A stretch of DNA of 63,862 nt, filler included, from Pirum gemmata (Eukaryota): assembly GCA_002812295.1 (NCBI GenBank). It is 17 parts of 17 records of this genome, joined end to end, with 100 filler letters (N's around TTAATTAATTAA, not from the genome) between each part and the next. Parts side by side here need not be neighbours in the genome. Positions count along the whole stretch, not along the records: positions 42,149 to 45,524 come from PDIN01002695.1; 16 more parts are not named here. One strand, written 5' to 3'. The translations under genes were made by a program, and so were the position numbers. Below, piece after piece: positions 40,774-45,290 of the stretch. The notes below the pieces were generated by a model, which made no database searches, had not been told where the DNA came from, and was given only the letters and a program-made list of their open reading frames with translations. Within the stretch, counting starts at the first letter, position 1. Each line of letters begins with the position of its first letter.

Positions 40774-42013
40774 GAATATCGTATTTCCGAGTTAAGTTCT
40801 GATGTCTTAAATCACTGGAAGGTGGCAGTAAATACCCTATATGAAGCTGGGAATCCATGCTCGATCGTGTCTCTTCCTAATACGATGCATTCCTTACCAG
40901 CTTATTATGTCATAGCACTAGCAGAAGCATCATCTAACCTAGCCAAGTTTGATGGTCTTGAGTATGGTATATCGTGTTTACATCCAGCTATTTCTTTGTA
41001 TTTTTTTGAAACTTTTGCTTTATATTGTAAAAGCAAAGCGTAGTGTGATGTAAGCCTAGGGGCAGAAGGAATTTGTTTGGATTTAACATATTTCTACATT
41101 TCCCACCCTTCATTTCGTAATTCCATTGGGGTATCAATGTCTCCCATCACATTTTTATCAAAAGCATATACTTTACCAATGTTGCAATTTTTCTCATTAG
41201 TATTATCATTTCTATCATCATTATTAATATCATCACTAGTTTTATATATATTTGTTATGGTTATCTGTTTTGTGTATTTATTTTCTATATATATTTATAT
41301 TGAGCTTGTGTAGAGGTTCTGTTTTTTCTCTTCTGCTGAGAGTATTTGTTATTGGTGTTTATTTGAAATTTATTATTATTATTGAGTTGTTACTGTTGCG
41401 TTTCCATAAAGGGTAAAATTGCTGATTTATCCCAGTTTGACGTGGTTACTATTGAGTTTCCATTTTATTTAGATGTCTTAACAGTTATTTTATTTTGCGT
41501 AAATGTATAGGTCATTCCTCTGACGAAGTTTATCCATTCGATAAAACAAGATTTGAAGGTTTTGGAAATGAAGTTCAGTCTAGAATTTTGGCTGGTACAT
41601 TTTGTCTGACGAAGGAGTGAGTTAATTATGTTGATTGAATCTTATTTTCAGTACTCTCGCCAAACATACCTTCTTCAATGTTGATCATGTTCATTATACT
41701 GCTATCATCATCACAATCCTTTTCACCATTATCATTTTTATTATCATCATGAAAATAACAATAATGAAATCATAGAATTTATATGTTTTCTATATTTTGT
41801 CAAAAAAAAAAAGCTCATTTAAGAATTACTACCTGAAAGCTACTGAAATACGAAAAAGCCTGATTAAAGAATTTGATAACATTTTCAATGACGTTGATAT
41901 TCTGGTTACACCTACTACAATTTCTACTTCTCCGTCCGAAGGTCATTGGAGAAAATCAGAAGAAATAAATCATTTTTCAAATGATGTATTCACAGTTCCA
42001 GCTAGTTTGGCAG
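40774..42013 (+). CDS. QRSL1: Glutamyl-tRNA(Gln) amidotransferase subunit A (mitochondrial GatA), internal/3' exons
   Basis: Phase-compatible exons 40774-40966, 41511-41616 and 41814-42013: [11 protein letters not shown]...[35 protein letters not shown]...[19 protein letters not shown]...[10 protein letters not shown]...[10 protein letters not shown]...[11 protein letters not shown]. Confidence 0.9.
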
Positions 42014-42223
42014 GTTACTTTCATAAGTTATTATTATTATTATTATTANNNNNNNNNNNNNNNNNNNNNNNNNNNNNNNNNNNNNNNNNNNNTTAATTAA
42101 TTAANNNNNNNNNNNNNNNNNNNNNNNNNNNNNNNNNNNNNNNNNNNNATTATTTATTATTATTTATTATTATTTATTAATCATTATTATTAATTATTAT
42201 TATTAATTATTATTATTAAACAG

Positions 42224-45097
42224 ACCACCGGGGCACACTTATTCCTCGCTTCAACGAAAGTACAAAAAGACGCTCAATTAATCATAAATTCACTTCAATC
42301 ATGCAACATCACACATGTACAAGCTACACCAGCTACATTTAAAATGATGATGAATATAGGTTGGTTAGGACAAAAGGATTTAACTATTTTATGCGGTGGA
42401 GAGGCTTTCCCTGCAAATTTGTTAGCTTTAATTCCTAATACCAAAGCAGTTTGGAACGTATATGGTCCTACTGAAGCCACAATCTGGTGTACTATGTTTA
42501 AATTTCCTAAAAGCCACACTGATCCTAAATATATACCTATTGGAAAAGCTGCACCTCATGTTGCATTGTATATATTAGATGAAAATATGAATGAAGTAGT
42601 TGACGGAGAAATAGGACGATTATTCATCGCAGGTGATTGTTTAGCGGTTGGTTATTGGGAGAGGCCAGATTTGACTACAGATAAATTTATTAAAGACATT
42701 TTTAGTGGAAATGAAAACGACCGAATGTATGATGCTGGAGATTTGGTTAGACGTTTGCCATGTGGTAATATTGATTATATATCACGGGCTGATGAACAAA
42801 TTAAGTTACGTGGTTATCGTATTGAAATTGGAGAAGTTTCGGCCACAGTAGAAAGTCATCCTGATATTGAAACTGCTATTGTAATGGTTGTAGAAGATGA
42901 TGATGAATTTGGTGGTGAAGCAGCGTTGGTAGCTTATATACAACTAAAACCTAATGTGGGTCCCAAAGTAGTTACCACTTTACGTAAGTATATGTTAGGA
43001 AAATCACCAAGTTACATGTGCCCTGCTGCTTTTAAAGTAATTGAAAAAATGCCTTTAACACCCAATGGAAAAATTGATAAAAAACAATTAGCCAATCATG
43101 TGGAAAACATTGACTTCGATATGCTCCTGATGAACGAAAGTAATAATACTGTTGGTTACAATAATAACACGAGTAATAATGATTGTCAGGACGAAATTAA
43201 CAAAATTATAAATTTAGTAATGGATATGACTGGGGCAAAAGTAGATGTCCATTCGGATTTATCAATTATTGGTCTTGATTCGTTTGGCTCTATGTTGTTT
43301 CTCAAACGGTTTAACAAATTATTTTCTACTGATTTTAAAATTGAGCAATTAGTCAAACAATCCAGTGTTAAAAGTTTAGCTGAAGCAGTAGTGCAGACAC
43401 AAACAACATTAACATACACACGTGACCAACGGACAAACTACACTTCAACACGAAACAGGAAAAATGACAAAGAACAAATTGTAATGAAAATCAGTAATTT
43501 AGTTGAAGAAATGACCGGTGCTACAGTAAGTTCAGATTCAGATTTATCTATAATTGGTCTTGATTCTTTTGGGGCTATGATGTTTGTTAAAAGATTTAAC
43601 AAACATTTTGCTACCGAATTTAAAATCGAGGAAATTGTTAAGCAACCAACCATTAATGCTCTAGCTAGTTTGATATTGAATCGTTCAACTCAAAGGAACA
43701 TGTTTGAAGCACACCGACATGAAAAAGACGAAATTGAAATCGCAAACCCGATTAGAAATTATGATTTATTGAATGGTTTACGTTTTTTCTTGATAGTTTT
43801 AGTTATTTTTGATCTATTTACAGAAGAAAAGTTTTTACATATAAAACGGTTTAGTGGTAGATGGAATACGGAGGGATTCCTTATTCTAACTGCCATGACT
43901 ACCATGTTGTCATTGGATAGTCAAAGGGAAAGTTTGAAAACTGCTGCCACGTTTAGACAAAAAGTTAAATTGCATCTTCAATTTATCATTTCAAAATTGT
44001 GTGGCATCTACCCAGTGTATTTGTTATCTGTTATCTTTTCTCTGCCACTTTATTTTCATCGATTTCATAATTATACCGATGGGAGTGCTGGTACTTTTCT
44101 GTACACTTTTGTTTTATATATATTAGGTGTACCCAATCTGAATCATACTACTGAATCCATGTTACCTTGGTTGTGGTATTGTGGTGTGTTAATTCAAATG
44201 ACGTTTTTAACTCCCGTTTTTTATGAAATAATGAATGCTCTCGCTGGAGCTTACAAAAAAAGGGCCAGGTTCAAATTCGTTTTCCTAATTACAACTTGGT
44301 TTGCTTTATCTGTTTTAAATTTTGCTTTTTCTCATTACTTGAAACTAACCCATGTCTTTCATTATATTCAAGGTTTTTGGTTAGGCTACTGTATGTCAAT
44401 AGCCGAAAAGTACTTTTTACAAAACGAATATACCTATATTTTAAAACAAAGTTATAAAAGTACAGTAGTGGTTTTAGTATGTGTTGCCTTGTTTGCTTTG
44501 AGTACGAGTATCCCTTTACTTATGAACTTATCCGGTGAAATTGAAAATGTCGAAAATAATAAGCATCCTTTTATAGAAGTGGTACTATTTTACTTTGTCA
44601 ACCCATTTCTTTTTAGCGTTATTGTGGTTTCGCTTTTTTGTACGTCTAGTAGTAAAATAATTAGAATACTATTCAAAAACCAAGTTGCCAATACTATTGG
44701 TGGGTTTTCTTACGAAGTTTATGTCTTCAGTACTGTTACTATTTGGTATTGCTCCCCTACTCTATATCAATCACCGTCTTATGCCAATCACCCGACTGAA
44801 GCTGCTCCTATCTTCTTTGTTCAATTATCTTTGCTTTGTACTGTATTTTGTGTGGCTTGGTTGGTAAATAATTACTTCACAAACGGGTTAATGCTATTAA
44901 TTATTCCAGAATTTAAAATCAGAATTTTCAAATTATTGACTAAAATGTTTACTATAGAAACAGAAAAAGGCGAGTACGCGTTAATTGAAAAACAGCTTGA
45001 TATTAGCGATTATTCTGATGATTGTTTTTCCGATTTTGATGATGAAACTTTATTATTTTCAACAAAATCTAAAAGAAACTCAAAATATATAGACTAG
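42224..45097 (+). CDS. NRPS-like protein: adenylation domain - two tandem carrier (T) domains - membrane acyltransferase_3-like domain; terminal exon, 5'-partial
   Basis: Acceptor aaacAG at 42223 is in frame with the 917-aa ORF. A-domain motifs QATP, CGGE, NVYGPTE, GRLFIAGDCLAVGY, YDAGDL, RADEQIKLRGYRIEIGEV, NGKID. Two IGLDSFG motifs (Ser codons at 43280 and 43565). Polytopic C-terminus with LLNGLRFF, GFLILT, GIYPVYLL, WLWY and IGGFSYEVYVF. Confidence 0.9.
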   Translation, partial: TTGAHLFLASTKVQKDAQLIINSLQSCNITHVQATPATFKMMMNIGWLGQKDLTILCGGEAFPANLLALIPNTKAVWNVYGPTEATIWCTMFKFPKSHTDPKYIPIGKAAPHVALYILDENMNEVVDGEIGRLFIAGDCLAVGYWERPDLTTDKFIKDIFSGNENDRMYDAGDLVRRLPCGNIDYISRADEQIKLRGYRIEIGEVSATVESHPDIETAIVMVVEDDDEFGGEAALVAYIQLKPNVGPKVVTTLRKYMLGKSPSYMCPAAFKVIEKMPLTPNGKIDKKQLANHVENIDFDMLLMNESNNTVGYNNNTSNNDCQDEINKIINLVMDMTGAKVDVHSDLSIIGLDSFGSMLFLKRFNKLFSTDFKIEQLVKQSSVKSLAEAVVQTQTTLTYTRDQRTNYTSTRNRKNDKEQIVMKISNLVEEMTGATVSSDSDLSIIGLDSFGAMMFVKRFNKHFATEFKIEEIVKQPTINALASLILNRSTQRNMFEAHRHEKDEIEIANPIRNYDLLNGLRFFLIVLVIFDLFTEEKFLHIKRFSGRWNTEGFLILTAMTTMLSLDSQRESLKTAATFRQKVKLHLQFIISKLCGIYPVYLLSVIFSLPLYFHRFHNYTDGSAGTFLYTFVLYILGVPNLNHTTESMLPWLWYCGVLIQMTFLTPVFYEIMNALAGAYKKRARFKFVFLITTWFALSVLNFAFSHYLKLTHVFHYIQGFWLGYCMSIAEKYFLQNEYTYILKQSYKSTVVVLVCVALFALSTSIPLLMNLSGEIENVENNKHPFIEVVLFYFVNPFLFSVIVVSLFCTSSSKIIRILFKNQVANTIGGFSYEVYVFSTVTIWYCSPTLYQSPSYANHPTEAAPIFFVQLSLLCTVFCVAWLVNNYFTNGLMLLIIPEFKIRIFKLLTKMFTIETEKGEYALIEKQLDISDYSDDCFSDFDDETLLFSTKSKRNSKYID

Positions 45098-45149
45098 TTT
45101 AGAAAAAATTAAACAAAATTAATAAATAATACATGCATCCATATTCGAC

Positions 45150-45290
45150 GTATTATTGCATTGTTGTATTGTTGCATTGTTGTATTATTGCATTGTTGTA
45201 TTGTTGTATTGTTGTATTGTTGTATTGTTGTATTGTTGTATTGTTGTATTGTTGTATTGTTGTATTGTTGTATTGTTGTATTGTTGTTTT
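45150..45290. repeat. 8-bp tandem repeat (ttgtattg)n downstream of the NRPS-like gene
   Basis: Direct inspection. Confidence 0.9.

Follow-up and report, generated by a model that had tools for sequence, protein, structure and literature searches.

Organization of the locus

The window analyzed here is a 63,862-nucleotide stretch of DNA from the ichthyosporean Pirum gemmata, composed mostly of ~3.4-kb contigs strung together via N44-TTAATTAATTAA-N44 linkers. Because the contigs were joined in this way, inferences about gene neighborhood within the window are invalid. One 3.4-kb contig (42149-45524) carries, on its plus strand, an open reading frame (ORF; 42224-45097) of 957 codons without interruption, which encodes the C-terminal part of a nonribosomal peptide synthetase (NRPS)-type adenylation (A) domain, two carrier (T) domains and a multi-pass membrane domain of the acyltransferase-3 (AT3) family (Table 1). 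This A-T-T-AT3 gene lacks its 5′ end, since the contig stops there, and the N-terminal ~228 residues lie off-contig. An AG at 42222-42223 follows an AT-rich repeat, and homology to the Pirum paralogue models P0003 and P0046 begins exactly at 42224, which points to an intron upstream of that position. The preliminary description had called the ORF spliced; the acceptor agrees with this, but the joint at 42224 is absent from all RNA contigs covering the gene, and "apparently spliced" is the better wording.

A Pfam scan of the ORF matched AMP-binding at aa 3-145 (profile positions 231-384 of 384), AMP-binding_C at aa 206-283, PP-binding in two stretches and Acyl_transf_3 at aa 516-878, and found no match to a condensation (C), thioesterase (TE) or reductase (R) domain. 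We confirm that the fusion of half an A domain, two T domains and AT3 is real. The GC content at third codon positions of the gene is 0.26, and that of other genes in the window 0.26 and 0.27.

Table 1. Features of the window, those of the A-T-T-AT3 gene first.
Feature	Position	Strand	Basis or remark
AT-rich repeat ending ACAG, at 5′ edge of contig	42149-42223	+	Putative end of an intron with a phase-0 acceptor
C-terminal ~290 aa of NRPS-type A domain	42224-43099	+	Pfam; YGPTE, YDAGD, QIKLRGYRIE, NGKID with catalytic Lys
Carrier T1, attachment Ser353 (codon at 43280)	43205-43390	+	PP-binding; bounds by offset from T2
Carrier T2, attachment Ser448 (codon at 43565)	43490-43675	+	PP-binding
AT3 (PF01757) multi-pass membrane domain	43769-44857	+	Pfam and custom profile
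Leu531 (CTA) at histidine position of R-X10-H, transmembrane helix (TMH) 1	43814-43816	+	Alignment; same letters in X1 and X2 contigs
TMH3 motif SKLCGIYP, RxxR reduced to KxxG (KLCG)	43991-44014	+	Alignment
End of last helix, acidic C-terminal tail, TAG stop	44858-45097	+	Translation
Spliced GMC oxidoreductase gene, 273-base GT..AG intron	38816-40521	+	Pfam; expressed in X2 and X3
Amidase-family gene fragment, introns of 544 and 197 bases	40774-42014	+	Pfam; first intron retained in one X2 contig
594-codon frame, long Cys-rich N-terminal region (CC, SC repeats) and HMA domain	62006-63787	+	Domain scan
735-codon Ser/Thr/Pro-rich frame	25445-27649	-	No Pfam match at E 0.01
Exon of NUBPL/ParA-type iron-sulfur scaffold NTPase	2891-3364	+	Domain scan

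Physical linkage and transcription

Three sequencing runs contain the stretch: X1, which gave DNA contigs, and X2 and X3, which were taken as RNA because both splice three GT..AG introns of genes on neighboring contigs. An X1 contig runs unbroken from 43030 to 45185 with no differences to the window, and an X2 contig runs unbroken from 43419 to 43949, thereby joining T2 to the initial helices of AT3. X2 also covers 42233-42661, 43191-43440 and 44082-45174; parts of 44038-44972 are present in X3. One X2 contig retains an intron at a depth (16) similar to the depths on the A-T-T-AT3 gene (8-21), and some unspliced or DNA content in X2 is therefore possible; the evidence for transcription across T2-AT3 is good but not absolute. 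A 42-nt intron placed over TMH1 in the gene model P0002 was rejected, as the segment is unspliced in the X2 contig and coding in the paralogues.

X1 also contains diverged A-domain pieces corresponding to 42565-42661 and 42964-43056 of the window, at a depth of 1519-1675 vs. 270-470 for other long contigs, which is a weak hint of several collapsed paralogues.

Family members and range

An exhaustive search with the T-T-AT3 region gave 44 matches at E ≤ 0.001. Family members among these are P0002-P0005, P0013, P0033, and P0042, and the aligned ranges of the remaining matches cover carrier domains only. P0002 is a public P. gemmata gene model that is 99% identical to the window copy and ends early in AT3; P0003, P0046, P0004, and P0042 are Pirum paralogue models, which indicate at least three loci in this organism. 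P0005 is an orthologue from Abeoforma whisleri, P0033 is an ORF from an EukProt transcript assembly that is marked complete, and P0013 is a fragment from ENA, probably eukaryotic. The A-T-AT3 domain order recurs in P0046, P0005, P0033, and P0013. P0003, P0046, and P0033, the three relatives that have an N-terminus, begin at the A domain and are without condensation or TE/R domains, in support of the earlier interpretation.

A word-index search with the AT3 region alone retained 0 of 3071 candidates. With the full alignment, the best 120 of 7992 comprised 119 bacterial NRPSs, all lacking PF01757, and 1 family member, and the AT3 alignment retained 2 of 5112, both previously found family members. 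As few family members were recovered by these searches, the range of the family is undersampled. A metagenome scan with P0033 gave seven loci, including two ordinary NRPS modules (L001, L003); viral contigs gave no family match, and in plasmids no site spanned 80% of P0005 or matched AT3. Three AT3 candidates in long frames (L086, L087, L152) were rejected as stand-alone AT3s rather than fusions.

Adenylation and carrier domains

The A domain of the window copy is 91% identical to that of P0046 over 292 aa. It is partial and scores 201 on TIGR01733, with the C-terminal core motifs present; the whole A domains of P0046 (372.7) and P0033 (364.1) pass the cut-off of 317.4. DltA models score far below their cut-off on the A domains of the family. 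With code positions placed from motif anchors using GrsA offsets, the specificity code reads DILQLGVIWK in all three whole A domains (P0003, P0046, P0033), and the window copy shows QLGVIWK, i.e., seven positions matching the glycine code, the first three being off-contig. The Gly-specific code of Bat2 is given as DILQLGLIWK (PMC4831472), and DILQLGMIWK is likewise assigned to Gly (PMC12283262). The predicted substrate is thereby narrowed to glycine. A quick tree of 60 A domains sampled 5 from the family, 40 out of 129 with a Gly code and 15 out of 108 others; in it, the five eukaryotic ones formed one clade (SH-aLRT, the Shimodaira-Hasegawa-like approximate likelihood ratio test, 99) among the bacterial Gly-code domains, on long branches.

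T1 and T2 of the window protein are 59% identical and each retains its serine. Among the family members compared, two carriers occur only in the Pirum copies. Since T1 groups with T1 and T2 with T2 across these copies, the duplication is older than the Pirum paralogues.

The AT3 domain

PF01757 matched the window protein with 42.3 bits (E = 6.4e-11, cut-off 31), so that the C-terminal domain is AT3 by profile hidden Markov model, as had been proposed. When scored against a profile built from 29 non-carrier bacterial AT3s, the AT3 part of the window protein reached 26.8 bits, vs. -0.3 when reversed and at best 7.6 among 199 reported shuffles (200 made). P0005 scores 56.1 on PF01757. P0033 and P0013 had no Pfam AT3 match at E 0.05, and reached 40.4 and 9.1 on the custom profile vs. 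shuffle maxima of 11.1 and 5.5. With regard to the TmAT fold of 10 helices, hydropathy analysis gave six segments over 1.5. Structure models reached a pLDDT (predicted local distance difference test) of 40 and 46, fold searches returned only generic helical matches, and the AT3 profile had no match among PDB sequences at E 10.

All five AT3 motifs quoted in the preliminary description are present in the translation, but several (DxxR, FxxxxG, RxxR) are degenerate. The family was aligned as five members, with the near-duplicate P0047 left out. As in other AT3/TmAT proteins (OafA, OafB, OatA, with HGSNAT and GWT1 in the superfamily), the TMH1 Arg, TMH2 Phe, TMH3 Pro, and TMH9 SxxxY are kept; the TMH1 Arg of R-X10-H is Arg520 in the window copy and is kept in all five members, and SxxxY reads SYEVY. 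The Asp of DxxR in TMH1, reported as dispensable in OacB, is Asn in the window copy and is Asp in none of the five. In FxxxxG of TMH2 the window copy keeps Phe and has Ala for Gly, and the corresponding type of change in OafA, G46A, is reported as fully active (PMC7448272). Fifteen loci across 406 genomes matched the family profile and yielded 14 non-carrier AT3s, all of which keep the R and H of TMH1, both Arg of RxxR and the outer Glu. The Glu of WSxxxExxFY is present in none of the five family members vs. 14 of these 14.

One residue was overlooked in the earlier list of AT3 signatures. At the histidine position of R-X10-H the window copy has Leu531, which shows 0 differences in DNA and RNA contigs and lies two bases from either His codon. 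This His is kept in four of five family members and in 66 of 66 aligned bacterial AT3s, the window copy being the sole exception. In OafA, R14A, H25A, R69A, and R72A each left <0.4% activity, with 0.33% for H25A and 0.07% for R72A (PMC7448272).

Actinobacterial fusions and probable origin of the family

The architecture also exists outside eukaryotes: A-T-AT3 single chains with another class of A domain occur in Actinobacteria. Bacterial clusters of the Atlas share the three Pfam families of the gene (0.93, 0.90, 0.87), and the membrane part of P0033 matched AT3 clusters. The actinobacterial type comprises P0174 of Micromonospora sp. KC213 and relatives from two actinobacterial orders, where they were recovered from 12 and 10 genomes, respectively, out of 121 each. 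Its domain order is that of the eukaryotic family and it likewise lacks the Asp of DxxR (0 of 23). In contrast, its A domain is acyl-CoA-ligase-like (CoA, coenzyme A), scores 143.5 bits on TIGR01733, below the cut-off, and is 21-28% identical to the eukaryotic A domains, which share 33-45% identity with Gly NRPS domains. The AT3 tree places the eukaryotic family inside an OafA-like group (support 98) that excludes the actinobacterial fusions. Given the different type of A domain, the eukaryotic family is probably a separate fusion; this is not proven, since approximately unbiased (AU) tests do not reject a joint clade (A domain, p = 0.65; AT3, p = 0.22), whereas the free trees separate the two. 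A glycine module of a bacterial NRPS may have been the source of the A domain, and the OafA-like group that of AT3, apart from the actinobacterial event. Twenty-one labyrinthulean transfers into the Abeoforma-Pirum clade have been described (PMC13345962); the main text of that article mentions no NRPS or acyltransferase, and its searchable supplements contain none of the family's gene identifiers.

Two further observations concern bacterial genes. Within 250 bases 5′ of the actinobacterial A-T-AT3 genes (L124-L145 and L088), 18 of 23 loci have an IdeR/DtxR-like site with at most six mismatches to a 19-base consensus; control stretches inside these genes had 8-10 mismatches in each of the 24 loci tested. 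This suggests that the actinobacterial family may be regulated by iron. Additionally, a 909-aa protein of Pseudoduganella (genome G395, L146:1468-4197) combines an A domain of this same acyl-ligase type, a carrier, one helix and a tail that by eye looks like SGNH/GDSL, with no AT3.

Proposed function of the family and alternative explanations

We propose that these proteins form a family of self-loading membrane glycyltransferases, of which the window copy is a divergent paralogue, and we would place about equal trust in this proposal being right as in its being wrong. The A domain would convert ATP and glycine to glycyl-AMP, and glycine would be held as a thioester on T1 or T2, with the carriers acting in parallel and a phosphopantetheinyl transferase of the host being required. 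The phosphopantetheine arm would then enter the AT3 channel that is used by acyl-CoA in other AT3 proteins, and AT3 would pass glycine to an acceptor on the lumenal or outer side. We favor a glycan or glycolipid of the wall or cell surface, since most characterized AT3s act on carbohydrates (PMC9558356) and the wall of P. gemmata is described as thick (PMC11286789).

Similar logic operates in bacteria. Lipid A glycylation by AlmE/AlmF/AlmG of Vibrio, which uses glycine, and the DltA/DltC/DltB/DltD system of Firmicutes both rely on adenylation, a carrier thioester and a membrane transferase. AlmG is of the lipid A acyltransferase type, DltB is an MBOAT, and the acceptors of both systems are bacterial. 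Thus, Alm and Dlt use separate proteins and non-AT3 transferases, whereas the eukaryotic family is a single chain with AT3. Poly-lysine synthetase Pls and PosA are membrane-bound, single-module NRPS-like enzymes in which A-T is followed by a membrane part with C-like domains that polymerize; the window ORF shares A-T and a membrane part with them, but none of the C-like domains was detected in it. Among eukaryotes, fungal ErgS (ergosteryl-glycine synthase) likewise glycylates a membrane component, but is described as using Gly-tRNA and a DUF2156 fold, without A, T or AT3 domains (PMC8913301). A review of AT3 proteins names SGNH and racemase fusions and does not contain "adenylation," "phosphopantetheine" or "acyl carrier" (PMC9558356). 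In the literature covered (titles and starts of abstracts, with few subscription papers) we found no description of this architecture, and we regard the family as real: an undescribed eukaryotic family that is a new combination of known parts.

The losses in RxxR of TMH3 bear on the donor. The second Arg is present in 0 of 5 family members vs. 14 of 14 of the best-matching non-carrier AT3s and 23 of 29 other non-carrier AT3s, and RxxR is intact in 0 of 23 actinobacterial fusions, which mostly lack the first Arg where the eukaryotic family lacks the second; the contrast comprises two clades and not 28 independent cases. In OafB, Arg14 and Arg74 are modeled on the 3′-phosphate of CoA (PMC9833829), and for TmAT proteins PMC12423673 describes residues that contact the CoA moiety, with the TMH1 His located farther outward. 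Because a phosphopantetheine arm is without 3′-phospho-ADP, loss of an RxxR Arg fits a carrier-tethered donor. The idea of an aminoacyl-carrier transferase in one chain, as first put forward, is partly supported, by the single chain, the AT3 match, the absence of an upstream C module in three relatives and these residue losses; a cell-surface polymer as acceptor remains a prediction, and the window copy, which has no TMH1 His, may not be an active transferase.

Several results weigh against the proposal. The limited number of clades behind the RxxR contrast is one of them, and loss of the Arg could also mean a dead or non-catalytic domain, as OafA R72A is inactive. Leu531 in place of the TMH1 His argues against transfer activity in the window copy, and AT3 of this copy has changed alone at 3 of 27 positions that are invariant in three distant members (H531L, F558M, Q637P), vs. 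none changed in P0046 alone. With the Glu of WSxxxExxFY lost, chemistry on the acceptor side may differ from that of O-acetyltransferases. No RNA contig of X2 or X3 joins A to T1; uncovered stretches of the gene (~42750-42960 in X1; 42662-43190 and 43950-44081 in X2) carry no weight. Finally, the 5′ exons of the window copy itself are missing from the contig.

The three private changes raise the alternative that the window copy is a dead or decaying AT3 duplicate, which might continue to load glycine and feed a paralogue in trans, serve as an anchor or partner, or be a 5′-truncated relic. This is compatible with the proposed mechanism for the family, and we consider it unlikely, though a serious contender. 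Redundancy is provided by the three or more Pirum loci, and the window copy and P0046 are 91% identical in the A domain but 57% in AT3. In the N-terminal half of AT3, changes confined to the window copy vs. the paralogue numbered 16:6 (p = 0.052), 7:9 and 15:8 with three outgroups. However, no relative-rate test reached p < 0.05, the C-terminal end gave 4:9 and 4:3, and the end branches were inconsistent between trees (0.29 vs. 0.34; 0.38 vs. 0.20). The intact frame of 957 codons and the contigs of two RNA runs also speak for a maintained gene. Moreover, GWT1 functions without HGSNAT's catalytic histidine, and HGSNAT itself has Asn at the TMH1 His position. It is conceivable that the transfer step of the window copy has been altered or lost, and P0046 and the Abeoforma protein would be better candidates for the activity of the family.

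A second alternative leaves the glycyltransferase in place and changes its acceptor to a lipid or small molecule. The product would be an ester of a sterol or glycerolipid, or else a conjugate with an amine that leaves across the membrane, for which Ebony-like logic is a model. Members of TmAT acylate an inositol lipid and amines, AT3s of fungi and Streptomyces acylate natural products, and the family has lost the Glu/Tyr motif that glycan O-acetylases carry on the outer side. Glycyl-sterol is also made in fungi, by a tRNA route (PMC8913301). On the other hand, the carbohydrate acceptors of most characterized AT3s, the position of the family AT3 among OafA-like proteins (support 98) and the thick wall of P. 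gemmata favor a glycan, and we find this alternative rather improbable, a little more so than decay of the window copy. It is very improbable that the gene forms the terminal module of an ordinary multimodular NRPS, with upstream modules on another contig: the 5′ part is indeed off-contig and the closest bacterial A domains (best 120 of 7992) belong to multimodular NRPSs, but both P0033 and the paralogues whose A domains are 91% identical have their initial Met 9-12 residues ahead of the A domain. An artefact of assembly or annotation, or bacterial contamination, is scarcely credible despite the fragmented assembly, the early end of P0002 in AT3 and the lack of a contig across the whole gene, as one DNA contig extends from the end of the A subdomain to the stop, an RNA-run contig covers T2-AT3, the domain order is repeated in P0046, P0005, P0033, and P0013, and the third-position GC content is that of other window genes.

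Returning to the self-loading glycyltransferase, we tentatively put forward a more specific form of it, with more doubt than confidence. The family would be an independently assembled, one-protein eukaryotic counterpart of Alm and Dlt, in which an AT3/TmAT domain for the first time moves an amino acid, is fed by a carrier and not by CoA, and glycylates the wall or surface; the copy without the His would be a specialized partner or variant and not a relic.

Other features of the window

The GMC oxidoreductase and amidase genes were rejected as gene context, since they lie on another contig. The Cys-rich frame with an HMA domain may be the beginning of a transporter or chaperone for heavy metals. 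The remaining features are listed in Table 1.

Significance

If the proposal is correct, AT3/TmAT chemistry would extend beyond acyl-CoA to amino acids tethered to a protein, and surface aminoacylation through NRPS logic would occur in a eukaryote, a close unicellular relative of animals. Ester- or amide-linked glycine would then be predicted, and detectable, in the walls or lipids of ichthyosporeans. The CoA site proposed for AT3 proteins also becomes testable through two apparently separate carrier-fused families that have lost CoA-binding Arg in parallel. For such work, Abeoforma is transfectable and Pirum offers a natural His-to-Leu variant.

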